Of a stretch of 46,144 nucleotides of DNA, positions 1 through 44,748 are shown piece after piece. The first letter of the stretch is position 1, and each line of letters starts with the position of its first letter. Source of the DNA: a virus (Duplodnaviria > Heunggongvirae > Uroviricota > Caudoviricetes); IMG/VR virus record IMGVR_UViG_2718218453_000007; one strand, 5' to 3'. The notes under the pieces were generated by a model. The model made no database searches, was not told where the DNA came from, and worked only from the letters and a program-made list of their open reading frames with translations. Made by a program: the position numbers and the translations under genes.

Positions 1-552
1 ATGCATGACAATATTTGGTTTACATATAAAGCACGTATCCAAGCGCACCATCGACTAGAATGGCTTGAAAAACACTCTCAATTTATCCTCGTTTGGTATG
101 CTATATTGAGTGCGGTACTTTCAATTGTAACGTTGCGATTTCCAAAGGTTCTAGGAGATAATACAGATATCGTTGCGGCGATACTTTCAGTGGCTCTACT
201 GGGTATTTCTCTGATCGTATCTAACCTAGATTTTCGTGGTCGAGCAATAGCTATGAGAAGGAATTATATTGCACTACAGCGACTCTATTTTGACATTACC
301 ACCAGTCAACAGTTATCTCTTGAACAGAAAGAAAAATATTTTAATTTGCTCAATGAGGTTGAGAATCACCGTGACATAGATGATAAAATTTCAAGGGTAA
401 CTCAAGTTGGACTTAAGACGAGGATCCCCACACAAAAAGAAAAAATAATTGTTATTTTATGGATATTACTTCGAATATTTATTACTGCCGCACTTTATAT
501 ACTCCCATTAATATATCTTTGGATTGACTATGACTGCAAGCAGAATTTTTAA
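1..552 (+). CDS. Small integral membrane protein (3 predicted TM helices), first gene of the reverse-transcriptase operon; candidate effector partner
   Basis: ATG at window position 1; hydrophobic segments FILVWYAILSAVLSIVTL, IVAAILSVALLGISLIVSNL and IIVILWILLRIFITAALYILPLIYLWI; 3' end overlaps the RT ORF by 29 nt (operon arrangement); strongly AT-rich relative to neighbouring tail genes. Confidence 0.55.
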   Translation: MHDNIWFTYKARIQAHHRLEWLEKHSQFILVWYAILSAVLSIVTLRFPKVLGDNTDIVAAILSVALLGISLIVSNLDFRGRAIAMRRNYIALQRLYFDITTSQQLSLEQKEKYFNLLNEVENHRDIDDKISRVTQVGLKTRIPTQKEKIIVILWILLRIFITAALYILPLIYLWIDYDCKQNF

Positions 553-1900
553 AAAGTCATTCTCGAAAAAAAACCTTCTAAAAGTATACTCTGAAAAAAT
601 CAAAGAATCAGGAGCGATTGGCATAGATCGGATTCGCCCATCAAAACTTGATTTGACAATAAAAAATGAGATCACTTTCATTTTTGAAAAGGTTAATTCT
701 GGCAATTACAAATTTACAGCATATAAAGAAAAATTAATATCTAAAGGCGCTAACTCTACACCCAGACAGATTTCCATACCAACTGCTAGGGACAGAATTA
801 CTCTTAGAGCTCTCTGTGAATGCCTTACGGAAATATATCCTAAGTCCAGATTAAAACTACCACATACAGTAATTGACTCATTGAAAGAAGCATTAAACAA
901 CAGTCTATATGCTGAATATGCAAAAATAGATCTTAAAAGTTTCTATCCTTCAATTGAACATAAATTGATAATTAATGCAATAAAAAATAAAATTAGAAAA
1001 AAAGAAATTAGACAGTTAATAACATCATCATTAATCGTGCCTACTGTAAGTGGAACCACAGGAAGCAAAGGTATCCCTAATAATACCAGAGGAGTACCTC
1101 AGGGATTAGCGATATCAAACATTTTAGCTGAAATATCACTATCTAATTTCGATGATGAAATCAATAAAATGCATGACATATGGTACATGCGATACGTTGA
1201 TGACATTCTTATTTTAACACCAAAATATCAAGCAACAAAAATAGCTTCTCATATCATTGATAAGCTTCAATCATTAAATTTAAACCCACATCCATTAAAT
1301 GAAGAGAACTCAAAATCCAAAGTAGGCAGTTTGGATGAAAGTTTTAACTTTTTGGGATACCACATAGAAAATCGAGAATTATTGATAAAACATGAGAGCA
1401 TTCTTAGATTTGAGTCATCCTTAGCAAAAATTTTTACTGCATATAGGCACGCTCTACTACAAGCTAAAAGTAAGCGTGATAAAGAACGAGCTGTTGCATA
1501 TTGTCAGTGGAAACTAAATCTCAGAATTACGGGATGTGTGTTTGAAGGTAAACGATTGGGATGGGTATCGTACTTCTCACAAATAACCTCAACAGCTCAA
1601 CTTCGCTCTGTTAATCATACTATCAATAATCTTATCCGCCGATTCGGCCTTTCATCAGAAATAAAACCAAAATCTTTGATTAAAACTTTCTATGAACTCC
1701 GCAGAGGTAGAGCGGAGACTTTTAAATACATACCTAACTTTGACAATCTACATATATCTCAGAAACGAGAACTTGTTTCTATGTGGATAGGTAAAGAGAA
1801 GGAAAAAAAACTTAGCAATAGTGAAATAGAGAGGAAGTTTAAATTTAAAATTGCGAAATCAGTAAAAGAGCTTGAAGAGGATATTTCAGGAATATCATAG
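524..1900 (+). CDS. Reverse transcriptase, non-retron Abi/UG/DRT-like (458 aa) with ~150-aa C-terminal extension
   Basis: RT motifs visible in translation: ISIPTARDRITLRAL (fingers), KIDLKSFYPSI (motif A), RGVPQGLAISNILAEISL (motif B), RYVDDILILT (motif C, YxDD), FNFLGYHI (motif E-like); no retron VTG signature seen; AT-rich. Confidence 0.8.
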   Translation: MTMTASRIFKKSFSKKNLLKVYSEKIKESGAIGIDRIRPSKLDLTIKNEITFIFEKVNSGNYKFTAYKEKLISKGANSTPRQISIPTARDRITLRALCECLTEIYPKSRLKLPHTVIDSLKEALNNSLYAEYAKIDLKSFYPSIEHKLIINAIKNKIRKKEIRQLITSSLIVPTVSGTTGSKGIPNNTRGVPQGLAISNILAEISLSNFDDEINKMHDIWYMRYVDDILILTPKYQATKIASHIIDKLQSLNLNPHPLNEENSKSKVGSLDESFNFLGYHIENRELLIKHESILRFESSLAKIFTAYRHALLQAKSKRDKERAVAYCQWKLNLRITGCVFEGKRLGWVSYFSQITSTAQLRSVNHTINNLIRRFGLSSEIKPKSLIKTFYELRRGRAETFKYIPNFDNLHISQKRELVSMWIGKEKEKKLSNSEIERKFKFKIAKSVKELEEDISGIS

Positions 1901-1963
1901 ATATGTAATCCATTAAGTCATTAAAATATATCGCAATAAACACACTATTTAAACTCACAAACC

Positions 1964-2004
1964 AGCCGCAGTATCCTGCCATGGCAAGTTGCTGCGGCTT
2001 TTTA
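1964..2004 (+). terminator. Intrinsic terminator downstream of RT gene
   Basis: Inverted repeat AGCCGCAG ... CTGCGGCT (8-bp stem, ~20-nt loop with internal pairing) followed by a T-run. Confidence 0.5.
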
Positions 2005-2007
2005 TGT

Positions 2008-2301
2008 TCAACGGATCAACAGCCAGATCAGAAGACACGCTACCATCGGCACAGCAAAATCCATCAGGCTTGCCACATCCCATGCGCGTGGATCAAAACC
2101 GCCCCACCACGGCATGTTAATCCGCTTGCCATGCCCGAACATTTCAATCCAGCGATATTATGCTTGGGTGTGTTCGCCCGCAATGAAGAACGTACAACTG
2201 GCTATCGCTCCGTAAACCCAGTTTCCGGTAAAAAGCCCCACCAGTATCTGCGCAGCCACAGCACAAAGTGCATGAAGGAAAGGTGTTATACCCATTTTCA
2301 T
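2008..2301 (-). pseudogene. Small membrane-protein ORF interrupted by an in-frame TAA (47-aa + 44-aa halves)
   Basis: Minus-strand reading frame MKMGITPFLHALCAVAAQILVGLFTGNWVYGAIASCTFFIAGEHTQA-stop-YRWIEMFGHGKRINMPWWGGFDPRAWDVASLMDFAVPMVACLLIWLLIR is continuous except for one TAA at 2158-2160; hydrophobic helices in both halves. Confidence 0.3.
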
Positions 2302-2308
2302 CCTACCC

Positions 2309-2331
2309 AATAAAACGGGGCGCACAGCCCC
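2309..2331 (-). terminator. Intrinsic terminator just downstream of stf stop
   Basis: GGGGC-tgtgc-GCCCC hairpin followed by GTTTTATT on the minus strand, immediately after the stf stop codon. Confidence 0.5.
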
Positions 2332-2337
2332 TTAATA

Positions 2338-5300
2338 TTATTTAGAGGCAAGCGCCGCCTCAATTGCAGATAATCTTTGTTTTAATTCTGCGTTTTCTTC
2401 TTCCAGCGCGGTAACGCGACCATCTGTTTCACGGGCGACCTGAACAAGTAACCCCGTCACGGCGGCGTAGTCAACATTCAGATAACGTGTTTCTTCACGT
2501 AATTCATTGCCGTCAACCGTTGGTCCCTGCAACTCTTCACCGTAATGAGTAAACGATCCCACAGCTTCTGGTATCGCCTCCATTACTTCCTGTGCAATAA
2601 CGCCAGCATAAGGCATCCCGTTTTCCCTGAGCGTGTAGGTGTATCCGTTCATTTTACGGATTGCTTTCGTCGCGTCGCTGATAACGAGAATATCGTCTTT
2701 AAGGTCGCGGTCTGATGACTGATTCAGCGTTGTGCAATTAATAGCGCCATTTACATCAAACAACTGGCCTGCTGACGTTTTTTGCGCATAAAACAGATAC
2801 GCAGCAGACGTTCCAACCTCAAAAACGTTTTGTCGAGTACTGGAACCCCACACCCTGACAGAAAACGGTAGTTCTGCATTACCTGAGTTCTGTAAAACAA
2901 AACGATTGCCAGTCCCTGTTTGTTTTGTAAGAGTTAAATCAACAGTTGAGTTAACCTCATCCTTGTTGATAGTGAGCGCCTGCGCTTTAGCCCCGTTAAC
3001 AGCACCTGTTTTGAGTTGAACCGCGCCGTCATTACCATTTAACAGTATCTCAGCTCCGCTAAAGAAATTTTTTAGCGACAACATCTTACTTACGCCGACT
3101 GATGAACCCAACGCCCACGCGAGAGAATTACCGGTGCTATCAAACCCACGTACAAAGCAATCCATTTTGCTATAGTCTGACGTGCTTCCAAGGACATCAA
3201 TCCGCCCTCCGCCAGATTTTACCGGGTTAGATGTGGTTAATGACCTGACAGCAAGATCGGTAGATGAATTGAGATCGTCTACTGTTAATAGTCGTTTCCA
3301 TCCCTTATCAACCCCAGCCTCAAAGCTTCTTGCCCAAAATTTGGAGTTGCGACCGGCGAATTGTGTGACGTAATTACCGCTAAATTGAGCATGGAATCCG
3401 CCAACAACCATTGTTCCGTCAGGACCGCCTGCGCTCCCTGCTATTGGCTTAAACTTATTTACATTCTCTGTATGTTGAGTGCTCCAGTTTTGCCCTGTGT
3501 GAACAACCAATCCCTGATAAGAACTGAAGGTACCATCAAGGTTAAAATTAAAGAACTTACTGTTCCATGAATTATTTATATCCGTGACAACAATTTCACC
3601 AGAAGCGTTAGCGGCCCTTAGTTCAGTTTGATCGACAACCGGACCTCCTTCGGATTGTAATCTTTGAGAAACAAATGTTCTGTTTGAAACGTCCGTACCA
3701 TACGCGGTGAAAGATTGTGTTGCTTTAATCTGACCATTGTTTACAAATATAGGAATAGTGACGGTAAAATTTTTGTCAAAACTCAGGCCATTTGTTAATG
3801 CAATCCTTTCTGACACCCCTTGTCTGAACGGAAGGTTGCTGTAGAAGCCATGTTCACCGCCAGTGAAGTCAAGAACATTTTTAACAAAGTTCTTGTCGTT
3901 ATCCTCCGTTGACGTTGATACACCAAACTTATATCTAACCCCGTTGTCACCAATTACGTAGTCTTCTGTTGGAACCTTAACTTTCGCCTTGTAGCCAGTT
4001 TGCACAACGACAGGAAAAGCGCTTTTATGGATGTAGAAAGCTACATGCTGCGCATAATCTCTTTGCGACGCTTTAATGCAAAGTATCCCGAGTTCATTTT
4101 TTTCATAGCAAACAAATGACCCGTAAGCCACATCGCGAACGTCACTCCAGCCACCACATCGAATGAACCCAAAAAATGAGTTACTATTAAGCGGATTTGA
4201 TGCCGGACCTCCTGCTGTTTTTATTTCAACAGGACATAACATAGCACCGCTCCCATTCATTGCGGATGTGTCTATTATGACAGGGTAGTATTTGCCATCC
4301 ACTGCACCACCAGGGGCATTAAGGGTCATCGCTTTTGTTAATCCACCCTCAGGGATTTGCAAATTAGTTTTGGCGTCATCAAGGCTATTTGCGCCAGTGC
4401 CACCATGAGAAACATCAAGCGGTATCCATTTTTTTTGTGTGTCGCTGTAACACCCCCATGTTGATCCGGTTAAACCCAGGCGCATGGATTTATCATGGTT
4501 ATATAACCATGTTTCGCTATTCCATTGGTCAAGACGGTCCACTTCATTTTTGCGAGCGTGGCGTGTCCATTGCGGGCCTGTTGTCGGATTCCAGCGATAA
4601 GTATAAAGCGAGCGCGTAGCCCATCCCTGAAATACACCTGTATACGCTGGAGTTCCATCTACCTGACTAATAAACCCCGTAAGACTGCTTTCACCGGATG
4701 CAATCGATGGAAAGCCTTTTGCATTACTCATAATGCGCATAAATCCGATATACCCTGATGGGTTGCCGGAAATATCAGGACAATCACGCGGGGCTGAGCC
4801 AAGACCGATATTATCGCCAACAATTACTTGCGCCTGGTTGCGATAATTAAGTGCGTCCGCCGCAGATTTCGCCGCGTTTGTTTCACTGGATTTAGCATTA
4901 GTTTCGCTGGCTTTAGCGTTTGTTTCGCTGCTCTTTGCTGCTGCCTCGCTATTTTTCGCGTTGGTTTCTGATTTTTTGGCTGCTGTCGCGGAGTTTGCCG
5001 ATGCAGTTTGTGAGTCTGCTGCCGCCTGTGCGCTGTTATCCGCATTCGTCTCAGACGTTTTTGCGGCCTTCGCGGAATTTCCTGCCGCCGTTGCCGAGGA
5101 AGCGGCATTACTGGCGCTCGAGGCTGCGCTCGTTTCTGATGATTTCGCTGCCTCTTTTGAGGCCGCCGCATCCCGGGCTGAGGTGGCAGCTTCTGACGCT
5201 TTCGTGGTCGCGGTGGATGCAGAAGTGGCTGCAGATTTTTGTGACGCTGCCGCATTCGTTTCTGACGTTTTCGCCGCACCGGCACTGGTAGCCGCCGCGC

Positions 5301-5883
5301 TTTTTGAGGACTCTGCAGCGGCAGCACTTTTTGATGCTTCAGTGGCCTTTGTTGATGCCGTTCCTGCGCTGGAAGACGCCTCCTGAGCCGAAGTCGCGGC
5401 CTGTCCGGCTGACGTGCTGGCTGCACGCGCTGAGCCTGCAGCATCAGTCGCATGGGTTGCCGCCTCACGGGCAGATGTGCCGGCATCACTGGCTGACTTC
5501 TTCGCGGCTGCCGTGTTCTGTGCCACCGCGGACGCGTTACGCGTCACCTCTTCCACCATCAGTTCAAAACGGCGCAGAGCCTCCGGACGGGCATCATCCT
5601 CCGTCATGGCACCGAGAAAATCATTCAGCGTACCGGGTCGGGAATCTTCATACACGGTGATGGTCCCGGCATGTGACGGCGGGAATCCTTCCACCAACAG
5701 AATAACGCTGTACTGACCGTACTCAACGTCCATGCTGTAACGCCCGGCTTCATCCGGATTTTCTGAGGCCACCGTGTTCACCACCACCGTGGTGCTGTTA
5801 CGTTTTGCTTTCAGCTGGATTGTGCAGTTCTGTACCGGTTTACCTGCACCGTCTTTCAGTACACCTGAAATCTTTACTGCCAT
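2338..5883 (-). CDS. stf: Side tail fiber protein Stf with C-terminal intramolecular chaperone (peptidase S74-like) domain
   Basis: N-terminus MAVKISGVLKDGAGKPVQNCTIQLKAKRNSTTVVV matches lambda Stf from memory; long Ala/Ser/Thr-rich repeat region (SETNA.., KSSETN..); C-terminal ...SDRDLKDDILVISDATK...EENAELKQRLSAIEAAL resembles self-cleaving endosialidase-type chaperone domains. The ORF track start (5889) is an upstream GTG; ATG at 5883 gives the lambda-like N-terminus. Confidence 0.9.
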   Translation of the reverse strand: MAVKISGVLKDGAGKPVQNCTIQLKAKRNSTTVVVNTVASENPDEAGRYSMDVEYGQYSVILLVEGFPPSHAGTITVYEDSRPGTLNDFLGAMTEDDARPEALRRFELMVEEVTRNASAVAQNTAAAKKSASDAGTSAREAATHATDAAGSARAASTSAGQAATSAQEASSSAGTASTKATEASKSAAAAESSKSAAATSAGAAKTSETNAAASQKSAATSASTATTKASEAATSARDAAASKEAAKSSETSAASSASNAASSATAAGNSAKAAKTSETNADNSAQAAADSQTASANSATAAKKSETNAKNSEAAAKSSETNAKASETNAKSSETNAAKSAADALNYRNQAQVIVGDNIGLGSAPRDCPDISGNPSGYIGFMRIMSNAKGFPSIASGESSLTGFISQVDGTPAYTGVFQGWATRSLYTYRWNPTTGPQWTRHARKNEVDRLDQWNSETWLYNHDKSMRLGLTGSTWGCYSDTQKKWIPLDVSHGGTGANSLDDAKTNLQIPEGGLTKAMTLNAPGGAVDGKYYPVIIDTSAMNGSGAMLCPVEIKTAGGPASNPLNSNSFFGFIRCGGWSDVRDVAYGSFVCYEKNELGILCIKASQRDYAQHVAFYIHKSAFPVVVQTGYKAKVKVPTEDYVIGDNGVRYKFGVSTSTEDNDKNFVKNVLDFTGGEHGFYSNLPFRQGVSERIALTNGLSFDKNFTVTIPIFVNNGQIKATQSFTAYGTDVSNRTFVSQRLQSEGGPVVDQTELRAANASGEIVVTDINNSWNSKFFNFNLDGTFSSYQGLVVHTGQNWSTQHTENVNKFKPIAGSAGGPDGTMVVGGFHAQFSGNYVTQFAGRNSKFWARSFEAGVDKGWKRLLTVDDLNSSTDLAVRSLTTSNPVKSGGGRIDVLGSTSDYSKMDCFVRGFDSTGNSLAWALGSSVGVSKMLSLKNFFSGAEILLNGNDGAVQLKTGAVNGAKAQALTINKDEVNSTVDLTLTKQTGTGNRFVLQNSGNAELPFSVRVWGSSTRQNVFEVGTSAAYLFYAQKTSAGQLFDVNGAINCTTLNQSSDRDLKDDILVISDATKAIRKMNGYTYTLRENGMPYAGVIAQEVMEAIPEAVGSFTHYGEELQGPTVDGNELREETRYLNVDYAAVTGLLVQVARETDGRVTALEEENAELKQRLSAIEAALASK

Positions 5884-5894
5884 ATTCACCCCAC

Positions 5895-5920
5895 AAAAAA
5901 GCCCGCCTGAACCGGCGGGC
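5895..5920 (-). terminator. Intrinsic terminator after lom
   Basis: GCCCGCC-tgaacc-GGCGGGC hairpin followed by a T6 run on the minus strand. Confidence 0.55.
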
Positions 5921-5947
5921 TGTCATAACACTGTGTTACCTGGCTAA

Positions 5948-6547
5948 TCAGAACTTATAACCGACACCCACGATGAAACCGTCAGTGCGCCAGTCGCCAC
6001 TGCCGGAGCCTTCATAAGCAATATCAATGGCCACGGATTCGGTCGGGTTAAACTGCACGCCAGCCCCCCACGCCAGAGACGTGTTGCTGCGGCGACCGTC
6101 ATCACTTCCGGTCAGCACTTCGTGCGTTTTCCCCTTGTTGTCAGTTACGCGGAGATAATCCCCGGAGAAAGTCGAAATACGGCTGTAAGCCACCCCCGCC
6201 ATCGCATACGCGCTGAACCATTCATTCACGCGCACAGACGGCCCCGCCATCACGCTGAACCAGCGGTTACGCAAGGAATCTTCATGCCAGCGGGTATCGC
6301 TGTAACGGGTCAGCTGGCGATTCTTGTCTCCTGCATAGCTGAATGACGTCACCAGCCCCAGTGTGTCCGTAAACTCATAACGGTATTTCACGTTAATCCC
6401 GTTCAGTTCATCGCTGCCGGGAACGTTCGTCGAGGCATGAAGATAGCCCGCGCTCAGCGTGGACTGATGTTCAGACGCCCATGCAGGCGCACCGGATACG
6501 ACCAGACAGATGGCTGCGGACAAAATGGCTGCACAAACTTTACGCAT
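5948..6547 (-). CDS. lom: Outer-membrane protein Lom (Ail/Lom family)
   Basis: Signal peptide MRKVCAAILSAAICLVVSGAPAWA, beta-barrel-like sequence ending GVGYKF; position directly after J as in lambda. Confidence 0.9.
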   Translation of the reverse strand: MRKVCAAILSAAICLVVSGAPAWASEHQSTLSAGYLHASTNVPGSDELNGINVKYRYEFTDTLGLVTSFSYAGDKNRQLTRYSDTRWHEDSLRNRWFSVMAGPSVRVNEWFSAYAMAGVAYSRISTFSGDYLRVTDNKGKTHEVLTGSDDGRRSNTSLAWGAGVQFNPTESVAIDIAYEGSGSGDWRTDGFIVGVGYKF

Positions 6548-30272: not shown

Positions 30273-31214
30273 ATGAGTACAGAAAATAAGAATAAAACTA
30301 GGCGAGTGAGAGTTGGTTTTTTCACTGGTAATGGAAGCAAAAAAGATGGCACATCTGCTGCAAAACTAGCCTTTGAGCAAATGACCACAGCAGATACTGT
30401 AACTTTTCCAATAACTTACACAACAGACACCCCAAATCGAGGGTTAAAGTTAGTTATTCTTCAAAAAGATACCACACTGCAATGTTACTTTGGTTACGTA
30501 TCGTGGAGAAGGGAATGCCTACTACCGTTCATCGAGGATGCTACAGGTAGTGAGAGAACAATTCCTTTAAATGATAAAGATTCTGTAGTTGAAAGAACAT
30601 ATTTTATCTATTACTACGAAACGGATTTATTAGCTATGACCCTCAACCATATAGGGCCCAAAGTAAATGATCTGGCATTCATTTTGTATAACAAAACTGA
30701 TTTAAAAAGCGTCACTTTTGAAGCCATTTGGAAACAAGAGAGCATGAAGGAACTGCTTGAGGACGGAAATATCCTACGTAGTTTCGATCTTATAGTTGCT
30801 GCTCCAAGAAACTTTAACAAAGCTAATTATAAGATTAAAAACCCTTTAGCTAATGAAATTATTGACATGGTTGTTGGTATGGGCGGGTCGCATCTAAGAT
30901 TAAATATGCGAGGTCGGATTCGCCCGAAAAAACAAGGTTTTAACTATCTAAAAACTTCTGTCACCGATGCTATTAAGGAACTACTTGAACTTTTTCCAAA
31001 AGGTTCTGGAGGTCTAAAAATTAAAAAAATTGATGTAACAGAGCCATCCAATAGAACGCCCAAAAGTCTACTTGACCAAGTATTGGTCAGTACAAAGACA
31101 ATCATTGTCAAAAGCGGTTATCCATCCGATTCTGATATCAGAACGGCGATGATATCTGCTAAAATTGATAACGCGAACTATCTTGCACAGTATGAGCTCG
31201 CTAGCAGAGACTAA
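30273..31214 (+). CDS. Hypothetical cytoplasmic protein (313 aa), first gene of a two-gene accessory cassette
   Basis: AT-rich ORF, opposite orientation to flanking phage genes; no recognisable catalytic motif. Confidence 0.6.
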   Translation: MSTENKNKTRRVRVGFFTGNGSKKDGTSAAKLAFEQMTTADTVTFPITYTTDTPNRGLKLVILQKDTTLQCYFGYVSWRRECLLPFIEDATGSERTIPLNDKDSVVERTYFIYYYETDLLAMTLNHIGPKVNDLAFILYNKTDLKSVTFEAIWKQESMKELLEDGNILRSFDLIVAAPRNFNKANYKIKNPLANEIIDMVVGMGGSHLRLNMRGRIRPKKQGFNYLKTSVTDAIKELLELFPKGSGGLKIKKIDVTEPSNRTPKSLLDQVLVSTKTIIVKSGYPSDSDIRTAMISAKIDNANYLAQYELASRD

Positions 31215-31223
31215 TAACCAAGC

Positions 31224-31685
31224 ATGGAGGACACAATGAGAGAATTAGCCACTTTTCTCTGGAAATGCGTCCTCTGGATTCTGTTGACCTATGCAGCGAC
31301 AAAACTGTTTAAACCGATGAAGCATGCTGACGTACTCACAACAGCGGGGGTGCTCTCGACTATATCAGGCATCCTGTTTGGTTTTGTTCTGGCTGCAATA
31401 TCTATATTTAGTAGTGCAAACAGCGATAAGGAAGGAGCAATTAATGCCCTTAAGCAAAACAACGTGTTACCAACTCTGGTAAATCGATTACTTTCAACAG
31501 GGTTAACTCTCATCGTCGCATGTATATTTCCATTGATAGCGATGTTTCTACCAGATGATGTTATTGTTGCGGGCAAACCTATTGATTTCCTATTCATACT
31601 GTTAGGCTTATCCTCCCTTATAATTTCGCTATATACCTTCGGAAGGTGTTGGTTAGTGTTACGAAAAATCTTCCCCCACTTGTGA
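31224..31685 (+). CDS. Integral membrane protein (about 4 TM helices), second gene of the accessory cassette
   Basis: Hydrophobic segments VLWILLTYAATKLF, VLSTISGILFGFVLAAISIF, LTLIVACIFPLIAMFL, FLFILLGLSSLIISLYTF; 9-nt gap after the upstream gene. Confidence 0.6.
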   Translation: MEDTMRELATFLWKCVLWILLTYAATKLFKPMKHADVLTTAGVLSTISGILFGFVLAAISIFSSANSDKEGAINALKQNNVLPTLVNRLLSTGLTLIVACIFPLIAMFLPDDVIVAGKPIDFLFILLGLSSLIISLYTFGRCWLVLRKIFPHL

Positions 31686-41268: not shown

Positions 41269-41805
41269 ATGTCATTTATTAAAACTTTTTCCGGGAAGCA
41301 TTTTTATTATGACAAGATAAATAAAGACGACATCAATATTAACGATATCGCGGTTTCCCTTTCAAATATCTGTCGCTTTGCCGGTCATCTTTCGCACTTC
41401 TACAGCGTCGCCCAACATGCGGTTCTTTGCAGCCAGCTGGTGCCGCAGGAATTTGCTTTTGAAGCCTTAATGCATGATGCAACAGAAGCGTATTGCCAGG
41501 ACATCCCCGCGCCACTGAAACGCCTTCTTCCTGACTATAAACGGATGGAAGAAAAAATAGACGCCGTAATCCGTGAGAAATACGGGTTACCCCCGGTTAT
41601 GAGTACGCCCGTGAAATATGCCGATCTTATCATGCTGGCAACCGAACGCCGCGATCTCGGGCTTGATGATGGCTCTTTCTGGCCTGTACTGGAAGGCATC
41701 CCGGCAACAGAGATGTTCAACGTGATTCCACTGTCGCCAGGCCATGCCTATGGGATGTTTATGGAACGCTTCAACGAGTTATCGGAATTACGCAAATGTG
41801 CATAA
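41269..41805 (+). CDS. yfdR: HD-domain 5'-deoxynucleotidase, YfdR-like
   Basis: HD-type metal-binding residues in ...LSNICRFAGHLSHFYSVAQHAVLCSQL...ALMHDATEAY...; ATG at 41269 preceded by GGAGAA; 178 aa as K-12 YfdR. Confidence 0.65.
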   Translation: MSFIKTFSGKHFYYDKINKDDININDIAVSLSNICRFAGHLSHFYSVAQHAVLCSQLVPQEFAFEALMHDATEAYCQDIPAPLKRLLPDYKRMEEKIDAVIREKYGLPPVMSTPVKYADLIMLATERRDLGLDDGSFWPVLEGIPATEMFNVIPLSPGHAYGMFMERFNELSELRKCA

Positions 41806-42674
41806 CTCATGTAGTTAGTTTTTCTGGCGGGAGAACATCCGCATATCTTGTTCACCTGATGGAAGAACAAAGAAAGGCTGGCAATAACGTCTGCTACATC
41901 TTTATGGATACCGGTTGCGAACATCCGCTGACATACCGCTTTATTCGGGAGGTTGTGAAGTTCTGGGGCATACCACTAACTGTGTTGCAGGTCGATATCA
42001 ATCCTGAGCTTGGGCAGCCAAATGGTTATACAGAATGGGAGCCAAAGGATATTCAGACGCGAATGCCGGTACTTAAACCGTTTATGGACATGGTTAAAAA
42101 GTACGGCACGCCATACATCGGTGGCGCATTCTGTACTGACAGGCTAAAACTCATCCCTTTCACGAAATACTGCGATAACCATTTCGGGCGAGGTAATTAC
42201 ATCACATGGCTGGGTATTCGTGCAGACGAACCCCGTAGGCTGAAACCGAAATCGGGCATCCGGTATCTTGCCGAACTGTCAGATTTTGATAAGTCGGATG
42301 TTATCCGGTGGTGGCGAAAACAACCTTTTGATTTGCAAATCCCGGAGCATCTCGGGAACTGTGTTTTCTGCATCAAAAAGTCAACGCAAAAGCTGGGGCT
42401 TGCATGTAAAGACGAACCAGGTCTGATGCGGGTTTTTAATGAACTGGTTACAGGCAAACACGTCAGGGATGGTCATCGCAGAACAGGTAAAGACGTTATG
42501 TACCGTGGTCACCTGACGCTTGACGGAATTGCCAGAATGTCTGCCAACAGCGACTACAGAAATTTGTATCAGGCGATGGTACAGGCCAGGCGATTCGATA
42601 CCGGCTCGTGTTCAGAGTCATGTGAAATCTGGGGTGATCAATTGGAATTGAAATTCGAAGAGGTAGGGGTATGA
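41796..42674 (+). CDS. PAPS-reductase-like / PP-loop ATP pyrophosphatase family protein
   Basis: N-terminal PP-loop-like motif VVSFSGGRTSAYL; C-terminal Cys cluster (CVFC...C..C). Confidence 0.65.
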   Translation: MCITHVVSFSGGRTSAYLVHLMEEQRKAGNNVCYIFMDTGCEHPLTYRFIREVVKFWGIPLTVLQVDINPELGQPNGYTEWEPKDIQTRMPVLKPFMDMVKKYGTPYIGGAFCTDRLKLIPFTKYCDNHFGRGNYITWLGIRADEPRRLKPKSGIRYLAELSDFDKSDVIRWWRKQPFDLQIPEHLGNCVFCIKKSTQKLGLACKDEPGLMRVFNELVTGKHVRDGHRRTGKDVMYRGHLTLDGIARMSANSDYRNLYQAMVQARRFDTGSCSESCEIWGDQLELKFEEVGV

Positions 42675-43494: not shown

Positions 43495-44748
43495 TTATTT
43501 TAATTTTCCCGTACCTCGAAGAAGTGATAGGTATTGATCAGTGGCAAGTAATGGTAGATTATTCTCTTGGCTAGAGTCGATATCTCTAATTAAAATTGTA
43601 CGGTTTTTTATGCTGAACTTGTATTTAGCCTCCAGCATTGCCCAAAACATTCTTTTATTTAATCTTGATAGTCTTATAAAATTTACAAGACCTTCAAGGC
43701 TCATAACTAAAACTTTCGCCCCTTTTGACTCTTTAAGGTTGCTAATTTCGTTATAAATCTTTTCAGCACCTTCTTTCTCTAAAACAAGATCTGAGATTAT
43801 CACTAAATGATAAATACCCTTTCTGCGCTTTATTAAGCATTCCCTCCCGTCATAATTAATAACCACATCATTATTTAGAATTGGGATAACGCCTTTAACC
43901 TGATCGATCCCTTGCAATGCTTTTTTCTTATACATGCTACAAAGCTTTTCATGAGATTTCAAACCCATTTCAATCAAAGATGATGCTTTAGACTGTATAG
44001 ATAATACATAGTCATTTTCTACAATAAGAATATCAACTAGTTCTCTTTTTTTATTACCCTCAATAATATCTGGAGAAAAAAACACTTCCTCCGGTGAAAA
44101 GACCTGCCGCAAAGCATGGTATATAAGAGCTTCCTGCTCATATCCCTCAGAGCCGTTTTCACTGACGCTAAATTCATATGTTAATACGGTATCGTTTGGT
44201 TCATGAACACTTGCTAGGTAAGATTTTTTATCGATTACACTTAGTGGCAGACTAATTATTTTCTCGTTACCAGTCAAAGCATTGTTGCAGAATTCATCCA
44301 TTGCTTCATTACCTTCCCTAAATCCTGAATTGAGAGAATATGAATTAGCACAAAATTTTTTTAAACATTCACACGGTAAATTTTCCGAAACTTTTATTTT
44401 CAGGTCCATAACACGCATTGTATGCGAGTCAAAAAATGATAATAGAATACCATCATAAGCGCCTGACAATAACAAATCCAGCCCTTTAATTTCATCTACC
44501 TCTCTTGGTGGATAGGCTAGTAAAAATGGATTATCGACATTATCTTCAATCAACATCCCAATCACTAGTATATTTTTAGTAGATAAACCTACCAAAAAGT
44601 GGATAGGTGCTCCTGACCAGACGGATTTAATTATAGGAAGGCTTGATTTAAGTATTATGTGGATATTACGATTTTCACTATCTACCCACACTCCATGTAA
44701 CTCATTGTTTAAATAGGCCAAAAGTTTAGTATTCATTTCAACTTTCAT
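43495..44748 (-). CDS. Hypothetical protein (417 aa), AT-rich orphan gene between Xis-like and int
   Basis: Long uninterrupted AT-rich ORF with its own upstream intergenic region; no confident domain assignment; a possible PD-(D/E)xK-like segment (VDILIVENDYVLSIQSK) is speculative. Confidence 0.6.
   Translation of the reverse strand: MKVEMNTKLLAYLNNELHGVWVDSENRNIHIILKSSLPIIKSVWSGAPIHFLVGLSTKNILVIGMLIEDNVDNPFLLAYPPREVDEIKGLDLLLSGAYDGILLSFFDSHTMRVMDLKIKVSENLPCECLKKFCANSYSLNSGFREGNEAMDEFCNNALTGNEKIISLPLSVIDKKSYLASVHEPNDTVLTYEFSVSENGSEGYEQEALIYHALRQVFSPEEVFFSPDIIEGNKKRELVDILIVENDYVLSIQSKASSLIEMGLKSHEKLCSMYKKKALQGIDQVKGVIPILNNDVVINYDGRECLIKRRKGIYHLVIISDLVLEKEGAEKIYNEISNLKESKGAKVLVMSLEGLVNFIRLSRLNKRMFWAMLEAKYKFSIKNRTILIRDIDSSQENNLPLLATDQYLSLLRGTGKLK

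Follow-up and report, generated by a model that had tools for sequence, protein, structure and literature searches.

A probable natural allele of the anti-phage system Eco3DRT10 (UG17) carried as cargo by a lambdoid prophage

The two-gene module that opens the window (the whole 46,144-nt stretch of Caudoviricetes DNA analyzed in this work, IMG/VR record IMGVR_UViG_2718218453_000007) is already known: it nearly duplicates DRT10 (UG17), which was described in 2025-2026 as a system by which bacteria defend themselves against phages. DRT10 has three parts, a non-coding RNA (ncRNA), a SLATT protein and a reverse transcriptase (RT). Our comparisons of these sequences indicate that the module is very probably a natural allele of Eco3DRT10 carried as cargo by a lambdoid prophage. 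The first-pass annotation had recognized a defense RT of the UG/Abi/DRT class with a SLATT-like membrane partner, which the profile searches bear out, and had suggested a possibly undescribed system that could be assigned to no named family. This last reading falls with the UG17/DRT10 assignment, in which the PADLOC profiles place both proteins with the same partner gene, and with the 98-99% identity to the tested Eco3DRT10. The latter system was characterized genetically and biochemically by Tang et al. 2025 (PMC12632851), and the UG17-SLATT pairing has been on record since 2022.

The RT gene occupies positions 530-1900 of the plus strand and encodes 456 aa from an ATG. An alternative TTG start at 524 extends the open reading frame (524-1900) to 458 aa, the form in which it had first been described; RefSeq and Tang et al. 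(PMC12632851) both place the start at ATG 530, and the latter authors dealt with the same TTG/ATG ambiguity in OKX54664, renumbering S458 as S456. The RT motifs previously read from the sequence were all recovered and, in the 456-aa numbering, PQG begins at residue 190 (nt 1097-1105), the intact catalytic YVDD covers residues 222-225 (1193-1204, plus strand) and FLGY begins at residue 274. Against the PADLOC model RT_UG17 the protein scored 526 bits (E 1.2e-158) and aligned along the whole profile (1-429 of 429), compared with 127 bits for the second-ranked PADLOC model, Drt3a, which places it in the UG17 group of the class 2 UG/Abi RTs; it also matched Pfam RVT_1 at 75 bits. It is about 99% identical to the Eco3DRT10 RT (OKX54664, from E. 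coli 703491), with 394 matches in the 399 residues of the stored part of that entry, and 5 substitutions in its 456 residues set it apart from the enzyme of strain IHE3034, itself the same as that of Eco3DRT10 over the 397 residues available. Like the window RT, the Eco3DRT10 enzyme has 456 aa, carries YVDD and ends in Ser456; changing YVDD to YVAA abolished defense and cDNA synthesis both in Eco3DRT10 (PMC12632851) and in the system of Escherichia sp. E3659 (10.64898/2026.04.29.721553). The window RT terminates in ...EEDISGIS and thus has the C-terminal hydroxyl residue of DRT10; the codon for its last residue, Ser456 (TCA, 1895-1897, plus strand), lies directly 5' of the TAG stop and encodes the predicted protein-priming nucleophile. 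The S456A substitution in Eco3DRT10 impaired cDNA synthesis and abolished defense (Tang et al., PMC12632851). The priming hydroxyl is borne by S456 in Eco3 and by Y444 in Eco1, and of the RTs encoded at 22 homologous loci from other genera, 20 end in Ser and 2 in Tyr.

The SLATT_5 membrane effector gene of the system lies immediately upstream (positions 1-552, plus strand; 183 aa). Its product matched the RT-associated SLATT model of PADLOC (RTasSLATT, E 1.3e-56) and the SLATT_5 models of Pfam (99.7 bits, cut-off 29.5) and NCBIfam (136 bits, cut-off 60), and is identical to the Eco3DRT10 SLATT at 179 of 183 residues (4 substitutions, ~98%). The three transmembrane helices that had been predicted correspond to hydrophobic segments at residues ~28-46, 57-75 and 149-174, with Kyte-Doolittle maxima of 2.1-2.6. 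The gene adjoins that of the RT on the same strand and, with its stop codon at 550-552, overlaps it by 23 nt (530-552, plus strand), in line with the translational overlap reported earlier; the native Eco3DRT10 operon likewise has overlapping genes in the order ncRNA, SLATT, RT (Tang et al., PMC12632851), and across the 22 loci from other genera the two genes overlap by up to 23 nt or are separated by up to 6 nt. The module is closed by a terminator-like element at 1964-2004 (plus strand), as had also been proposed: the hairpin at 1964-1999 folds at -21.3 kcal/mol (z -3.3, with 0 of 200 shuffles folding as well) and is followed by UUUUU, so that it presumably acts as a terminator. A simple terminator scan missed this hairpin, probably because its interior exceeds the loop limit of the scan, and it was recovered by folding the region.

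The third part of the system probably lies a short way beyond the window edge. Genomes identical to the window carry a structured ncRNA of 137 nt, 18-154 nt upstream of position 1, which is the SLATT ATG; the window lacks the RNA because it would sit upstream of this point, and a covariance model search returned no copy inside. Both genes of the previously proposed two-gene operon are real while its probable ncRNA had escaped view, and the earlier suggestion to inspect the upstream sequence for such an RNA was well placed. In the genomes that are 100% identical to window positions 1-2340, the 137-nt RNA is preceded by a promoter-like site (TTGACT, 18 nt, TG-AATAAT). The best-matching genome, that of strain a15 (99.9% identity over 24 kb), has a 100% identical ncRNA region that adjoins window position 1 directly, and the ncRNA region, with at least 95% identity, accompanies the module in every complete E. 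coli genome in which it occurs (187 of 187); these sequences suggest that the source genome would have it as well. The RNA folds at -57.2 kcal/mol (z -4.6), has the length and stems of the Eco3DRT10 ncRNA, and agrees in its numbering with the published U110, C116, A117 and U119. The covariance model also located it upstream of SLATT in all 22 homologous loci from other genera, whose RTs are 46-84% identical, and in 23 IMG/VR loci; in the 8 others, which gave no match, the sequence breaks off at the start of SLATT or of the RT, or close to it. With an alignment of 25 sequences that was fitted to the model, changes on both sides were observed at 28 of 37 base pairs and 96% of the cells were paired, against ~50% when the partners were slid. 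The ncRNA has neither an Rfam family nor a RefSeq feature, and when both strands of the locus plus flanks were compared with Rfam at permissive settings, a chance match to an miRNA (E 0.3) was all that appeared.

These data also bear on two other ways of reading the module. That the RT is a group II intron maturase, a retron RT or a DGR RT instead of a DRT is hardly conceivable: there are weak matches to TIGR04416 (144 bits), to the retron St85 RT (58.7) and to a fragment of GIIM (14.5), but the curated cut-offs are far higher (300, 235 and 23, respectively), the UG17 profile stands at 526 bits, and the Rfam scan of locus and flanks returned no intron or retron RNA. Direct repeats of at least 30 nt of the DGR TR/VR type were absent from window positions 1-6000; the earlier view of the enzyme as a defense RT, and not a retron or DGR RT, holds. 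The DRT families DRT3 (UG3+UG8), DRT2 and DRT9 were rejected as well, the NCBIfam scores being 112.6 for Drt3a (cut-off 200) and 76 for Drt2 (cut-off 390), and the PADLOC scores 69 bits for Drt9 and 86 for Drt2 versus 526 for UG17. A module reduced to a non-functional remnant, for instance to two orphan ORFs left after loss of the ncRNA or promoter, might be suspected since the window opens exactly at the SLATT ATG with the ncRNA out of view and nowhere else within it, and since a pseudogene stands beside the module. However, neither ORF is disrupted and their products share 98-99% identity with active proteins, the ncRNA region is present in every complete E. coli genome with the module, and in strain a15 it adjoins window position 1 without a mismatch, which makes this explanation highly improbable and leaves a natural DRT10 allele as the preferred reading.

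Within DRT10, the window type differs from the studied Eco3DRT10 in its template. The loop after stem-loop SL5, as read from the flanking DNA of identical genomes, is GUU-CAACGGUUC-CAAU and has the A-B-A' arrangement of DRT10; as in Eco3DRT10, the template starts at C107, right after SL5. In 24 of 25 sequences, the segment immediately after SL5 is a CAA...CAA repeat with a spacing of 9-11 nt (in two Bordetella loci it was read from the printed loop). Of the 187 complete E. coli carriers, 153 have the template CAACGGUUC, the closest matches to the window included, whereas the studied template is CAAUGAUUC; the small new point is that the majority E. coli template is CAACGGUUC, and that of Eco3 is a minority allele. 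Relative to the Eco3-type ncRNA, taken from strain IHE3034, the window type carries U110C and A112G in the template, at positions reported to tolerate substitution in Eco3DRT10 (Tang et al., PMC12632851). Since CAACGGUUC is followed by CAAU, the predicted cDNA is (GAACCGTTG)n, in place of the (GAATCATTG)n of Eco3DRT10. The A-A' homology of the window-type template amounts to 3 nt plus one G:U pair, and the two substitutions create an additional 4-nt GUUC...GUUC repeat, 8 nt apart, so that the register might move to 8 nt, with (CGTTGAAC)n as the product, or lose its precision. We regard it as distinctly unlikely that all of this applies together, namely that the commonest E. coli allele programs the different cDNA, perhaps in an 8-nt or imprecise register, and that the polymorphism diversifies the immune signal.

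How the module would act can be projected from Eco3DRT10 and the E3659 homologue, in which the steps were shown, by near-identity of the locus. The ncRNA, encoded immediately 5' of the SLATT gene, would be transcribed under a promoter of its own and bound by the RT, which would prime DNA synthesis from the hydroxyl of its C-terminal Ser456 and copy the 9-nt template (A-B) in the loop after SL5. The nascent DNA would then dissociate and re-anneal further downstream, where the first template bases recur (A'), and this A-B-A' cycling, which resembles that of telomerase, would produce long single strands of tandem-repeat DNA linked to protein. Host ExoI (SbcB) would keep the cDNA below a threshold, a control that phage SSB-like proteins may perturb, and a build-up or changed state of the cDNA would switch on membrane toxicity dependent on the three-TM SLATT, the putative effector, thereby aborting the infection; this last step was chosen among contested models. 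In Eco3DRT10, protein-primed synthesis of 9-nt tandem-repeat ssDNA by the A-B-A' route was demonstrated in vivo and in vitro (Tang et al., PMC12632851), and RT, SLATT and ncRNA were all required for defense in Eco1-3DRT10 (PMC12632851) and in E3659 (10.64898/2026.04.29.721553).

The effector step is contested in the literature, where opposite changes in cDNA upon infection have been described. The cDNA of Eco3DRT10, the closest relative of the window locus, falls on Bas18 infection, from which Tang et al. (PMC12632851) proposed that cDNA restrains SLATT; in a different subtype, the Toro group found that cDNA rises on infection and that the trigger is an SSB-like phage protein (10.64898/2026.04.29.721553). 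The opposite logic, with constitutive cDNA holding SLATT inactive until infection lowers it and frees the toxicity, is the model of Tang et al. for the same DRT10 system. Nonetheless, we consider it rather unlikely, as work on the E3659 subtype showed that RT-dead and ncRNA mutants, which make no cDNA, are tolerated and non-toxic even in an sbcB deletion strain, and that loss of ExoI, which should raise cDNA, is lethal only with RT, ncRNA and SLATT all intact: in that strain, the toxicity of DRT10 needs the three components (10.64898/2026.04.29.721553). We therefore favor activation of SLATT by accumulated or altered cDNA.

The E3659 system, a UG17-A DRT10 (10.64898/2026.04.29.721553), resembles the window locus in its tripartite ncRNA-SLATT-RT composition, with SLATT upstream of the RT, and in making tandem-repeat cDNA off a template flanked by short repeats, like the product predicted for the window type. 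Its RT (445 aa) and ncRNA (143 nt) come from another lineage, and its repeat is the 7-nt AGTAATA; the evidence for control by SbcB and for an SSB-like trigger comes from E3659 and not from Eco3-type systems. Judged by gene order and phylum, the window locus would fit UG17-A in the A/B/C scheme of the Toro group. The sbcB-essentiality locus of strain H120 is separate, being part of a P4-like satellite and assigned to UG17-B. Among the class 2 UG/Abi systems, DRT9 (UG28) and DRT2 (UG2) share with DRT10 a structured ncRNA, an internal template and repetitive cDNA synthesis, and DRT9 is also protein-primed. However, DRT9 makes poly-dA from a conserved U-tract with Tyr priming, and the window-type template loop has no U-tract, while the 120-nt template of DRT2 gives rise to concatemers encoding a toxic gene. 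Telomerase (TERT and telomerase RNA) likewise copies a short template in a separate RNA over and over, as has been argued in the literature: the product realigns by way of a template end that is repeated, and the 5' limit of the template is set by a stem. In contrast to telomerase, DRT10 primes from its own protein rather than from a chromosome end, is far smaller, has a membrane effector as partner and serves in phage defense.

The lambdoid prophage that carries the module as cargo at its tail-fiber end is integrated beside prfC. Several features of its setting had been noted before and were found again: a GC content of 0.31-0.36 over positions 1-2000 against 0.45-0.61 in the tail genes, and a convergent orientation with the 1183-aa side tail fiber ORF (stf; 2338-5889, minus strand). 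Nearly identical prophage backbones that lack the module support the view, already put forward, that it is acquired cargo. A distant blastn search of INPHARED phage genomes with the ncRNA and operon gave no match, and across our searches, INPHARED included, the module was seen only in prophages and in prophage-derived IMG/VR contigs. The small ORF adjoining it is a pseudogene, and Pfam and PADLOC searches of the neighboring unknown ORFs yielded nothing bearing on the module. A DinI-like gene was considered, since constitutive ssDNA in a lysogen might provoke RecA; as a fourth component it was rejected, accompanying the module only in close E. coli relatives and being absent from 22 of 22 loci in other genera.

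As a 98-99% identical allele of a tested and catalogued system, the locus has little discovery value. It does illustrate how prophage or window limits set at gene ends drop an unannotated ncRNA, which makes a tripartite system look bipartite, and a clone built on such coordinates would be inactive. It also shows DRT10 moving as interchangeable cargo at the tail-fiber end of lambdoid prophages. Finally, the majority E. coli allele offers a directly testable prediction of the cDNA repeat and, should SLATT gating or trigger sensing depend on the repeat sequence, natural polymorphism of the template would diversify the immune signal.

The first two genes of the window, both on the plus strand, encode a 183-aa protein (positions 1-552, stop codon at 550-552) and a reverse transcriptase (RT) of 458 aa when read from a TTG codon (524-1900). 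RefSeq and Tang et al. start the RT at the ATG at 530, two codons further on, making it 456 aa long, with an overlap of 23 nt between the genes. In the 456-aa numbering, the motifs PQG, YVDD and FLGY begin at residues 190, 222 and 274, respectively, and the 183-aa protein has three hydrophobic segments (residues ~28-46, ~57-75 and ~149-174). The GC content is 0.31-0.36 in window 1-2000 versus 0.45-0.61 in the neighbouring tail genes. The pair is convergent with a tail fibre ORF of 1183 aa (2338-5889, minus strand), and a hairpin followed by UUUUU was found by folding at 1964-1999 (-21.3 kcal/mol, z -3.3); it escaped a simple terminator scan, probably because its interior is longer than the loop limit of the scan. 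In all these features the ORF, motif, hydropathy, GC and folding results agree with the description in the first-pass annotation.

Profile searches show that the module is an already known defence system, DRT10. The RT matched the PADLOC model RT_UG17 over the whole profile (E 1.2e-158, 526 bits; second-best model Drt3a, 127 bits), and the smaller ORF matched the RT-associated SLATT model of PADLOC (E 1.3e-56) and the SLATT_5 models of Pfam (99.7 bits, cut-off 29.5) and NCBIfam (136 bits, cut-off 60). Other identities were rejected as the scores fell far under the curated cut-offs: group II maturase (144 bits, cut-off 300), retron St85 (58.7, cut-off 235), Drt3a (112.6, cut-off 200) and Drt2 (76, cut-off 390). 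Scanned permissively against Rfam, the locus with its flanks gave neither intron RNA nor retron RNA, and a search of window 1-6000 for DGR-type repeats (direct repeats of at least 30 nt) found none. The pairing of UG17 RTs with SLATT proteins was reported by Mestre et al. 2022 (PMC9226505), and the system was named DRT10 and characterized by Tang et al. 2025 (PMC12632851) and the Toro group 2026 (10.64898/2026.04.29.721553). The class-level reading of the first-pass annotation, a UG/Abi/DRT defence RT with a SLATT-like partner and neither a retron nor a DGR, was thus right. Its suggestion that the system may be undescribed has to be abandoned, since the profiles lead to a characterized family with the same partner; the group II intron that it had considered finds no support in the maturase score or the Rfam scan.

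The closest tested system is Eco3DRT10 of E. coli 703491, whose RT is OKX54664 (supplement of Tang et al. 2025, PMC12632851). In its annotation this protein has two extra N-terminal residues, so that its S458 corresponds to S456 in the numbering of Tang et al., and its gene overlaps that of SLATT (PMC12632851); the window shows the same two-codon start ambiguity and the same overlap. In a direct comparison based on the Table S1 row of Tang et al., the window RT was identical at 394 of the 399 residues of OKX54664 compared, and the SLATT protein at 179/183. The RT of strain IHE3034, which carries an Eco3-type allele, equals that of Eco3 over the 397 residues compared and differs from the window RT at five of 456 positions (S21T, T49A, K105N, N124S and K300R), none of them in the last 156 residues. 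The UG17 table of Tang et al. (PMC12632851) also has rows for sequences with these RT and SLATT proteins.

DRT10 also requires an ncRNA, whose gene precedes that of SLATT (PMC12632851; 10.64898/2026.04.29.721553). The window begins at the SLATT ATG, so this RNA must lie outside it; a covariance-model search of the rest of the window found no copy. In genomes 100% identical to window 1-2340, the intergenic spacer of 222 nt that separates the SLATT gene from a DinI-like gene contains a promoter-like site (TTGACT, 18 nt, TG-AATAAT) and a 137-nt ncRNA (5846-5982 of comparison locus L001, equivalent to window -154 to -18, negative positions being upstream of position 1). The flanking DNA of these genomes contains the structured RNA that the first-pass annotation had proposed to look for. 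It folds into a basal stem bearing four hairpins (-57.2 kcal/mol, z -4.6), and with these boundaries the positions U110, C116, A117, U119 and template A-B (107-115) of Tang et al. land exactly on the CAAU-GAUUC-CAAU of IHE3034. The spacer occurs in as many complete E. coli genomes (187) as the whole module does; none of these RefSeq genomes has an annotated feature under the ncRNA or spacer, and Rfam 15 has no family for the DRT10 ncRNA. In strain a15, 99.9% identical to the window along 24 kb, the spacer is 100% identical and abuts window position 1. The gap between ncRNA and SLATT ATG is 18 nt, including an AAAGGA ribosome-binding site, and the SLATT/RT mRNA probably arises by read-through from the ncRNA promoter.

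A covariance model built from five E. coli copies found a full-length, same-strand ncRNA in 22/22 loci of other genera (Xenorhabdus, Photorhabdus, Buttiauxella, Pseudomonas, Stutzerimonas, Stenotrophomonas, Bordetella and Paraburkholderia). In each locus an ORF of 179-190 aa begins 11-32 nt downstream of the ncRNA and abuts or overlaps an RT gene whose product has 454-457 aa, the RTs being 46-84% identical to that of the window. Among IMG/VR loci, 23 had a match and the eight without one are truncated at, or close to, the start of SLATT or of the RT. In an alignment of 25 sequences, 96.4% of cells were paired versus 50-58% with partners slid, and 28 of 37 pairs had changes on both sides versus 4-5 when slid; fitting the alignment to the model tilts these figures towards the structure, although the margin is large nonetheless. 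GUUCAA opens the loop right after stem-loop SL5 in 24/25 sequences (read from the printed loop for two Bordetella loci), with a second CAA 9-11 nt downstream, and this layout is the A-B-A' signature, A' being the downstream repeat of the first template bases. The C-terminal RT residue is Ser in 20 of the 22 loci, as in E. coli, and Tyr in two, a pattern that fits protein priming from the C-terminus. The two exceptions are Stenotrophomonas Eco3-type RTs ending in …DIVHTY, and the priming residue thus appears to switch between Ser and Tyr inside one lineage.

In Eco3DRT10, the RT binds the ncRNA and primes from Ser456, copies the 9-nt A-B up to a boundary set by SL5, and realigns the product on A' in a repeated cycle that yields kilobase-length, protein-linked tandem-repeat ssDNA; defence requires RT catalysis, Ser456, the ncRNA stems and SLATT (PMC12632851). 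Given the near-identity of the two systems, the window RT would likewise bind its ncRNA and prime from Ser456, copy nine nucleotides until the SL5 boundary, and re-anneal the product on A', so that recurring cycles would give protein-linked tandem repeats of kilobase length. How this cDNA acts on SLATT is read differently by the two groups. Tang et al. saw cDNA drop after infection and proposed that it holds SLATT back (PMC12632851). The Toro group, working on E3659, a DRT10 of another subtype, found that first-strand cDNA rises on infection, identified an SSB-like phage protein as a trigger, and proposed activation by accumulation; deletion of the host ExoI gene sbcB was lethal in a manner dependent on RT, ncRNA and SLATT (10.64898/2026.04.29.721553), which speaks against restraint. 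We favour accumulating cDNA as the signal that would activate SLATT, as the sbcB genetics are causal and the changes in cDNA abundance correlative. Restraint seems to us improbable, at roughly one chance in four, and it keeps that share because the sbcB evidence comes from another subtype.

Two template alleles account for 187/187 E. coli genomes: CAACGGUUC-CAAU in 153, including all closest matches to the window, and the studied Eco3 allele CAAUGAUUC-CAAU in 34. They differ by U110C and A112G, positions at which substitutions were tolerated and changed the product (PMC12632851). The predicted cDNA of the window-type allele is (GAACCGTTG)n, where A and A' are identical over 3 nt and the fourth position would form a dG:rU pair. 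The two changes also give rise to a repeat of 4 nt, GUUC...GUUC, with a spacing of 8 nt. Eco3, however, already has UUC...UUC at 8-nt spacing and yet makes 9-mers, and CAA is the anchor conserved across genera; for both reasons we expect the 9-nt register to be kept, a register shift having low probability. The majority allele thus offers a small, testable cDNA prediction.

The window corresponds to a whole lambdoid prophage, which lies between prfC and yjjG. Prophages with ~97% identical tail and head genes occur at another site without the module, supporting the earlier view of horizontally acquired cargo: in E. coli ET745, such a prophage at the ydfJ (Qin) site, compared with window 2392-24000, lacks DRT10 and has in its place the remnant of a tail fibre assembly gene along with pinQ, an invertase gene. 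The module also occurs at other E. coli prophage sites, e.g. adjoining yecD, and a distant blastn search of deposited phage genomes (INPHARED) gave no match. The DinI-like gene is found beside the module in close E. coli relatives but not in other genera, and is therefore a neighbour rather than a component. In E. coli HCM-28C-2 (locus positions 503-2500), two DinI-like genes, a capsid gene fragment and a DUF4760 gene lie upstream of the ncRNA, a layout suggesting that prophage ends are arranged in tandem or nested at the prfC site. In strain H120, the UG17 locus linked to sbcB is part of a P4-like satellite and is a different system.

Several other genes were inspected. A 95-aa ORF (2008-2295, minus strand) between the terminator-like hairpin of the module and the tail fibre gene is a pseudogene with an internal stop, intact in IHE3034, and had no match in Pfam or PADLOC; other prophages have a tail fibre assembly gene at its position. 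Two plus-strand ORFs of 313 aa (30273-31214) and 153 aa (31224-31685) are transcribed against the direction of the adjacent genes and lie between that of the Q antiterminator and the DNA methyltransferase/lysis genes, a classic cargo position, and had no significant Pfam or PADLOC match, the sole one being a weak, sub-threshold DUF4064. A 417-aa ORF adjoining the integrase gene (43495-44748, minus strand), with no Pfam or PADLOC match, may be a further cargo gene. An early-region gene (41796-42674, plus strand) located downstream of yfdP, yfdQ and yfdR encodes a PAPS-reductase-family protein that matched Pfam PAPS_reduct and, partially, an SspD-like PADLOC model (E 3.7e-15).

The window runs from the SLATT ATG to the integrase start codon, and several IMG/VR prophage contigs (L031, L040, L046 and L060) share its first base, with the RT match at 530. 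When prophage calls are bounded by genes, the ncRNA, which carries no annotation, is lost together with its promoter, and what is a tripartite system then appears bipartite.
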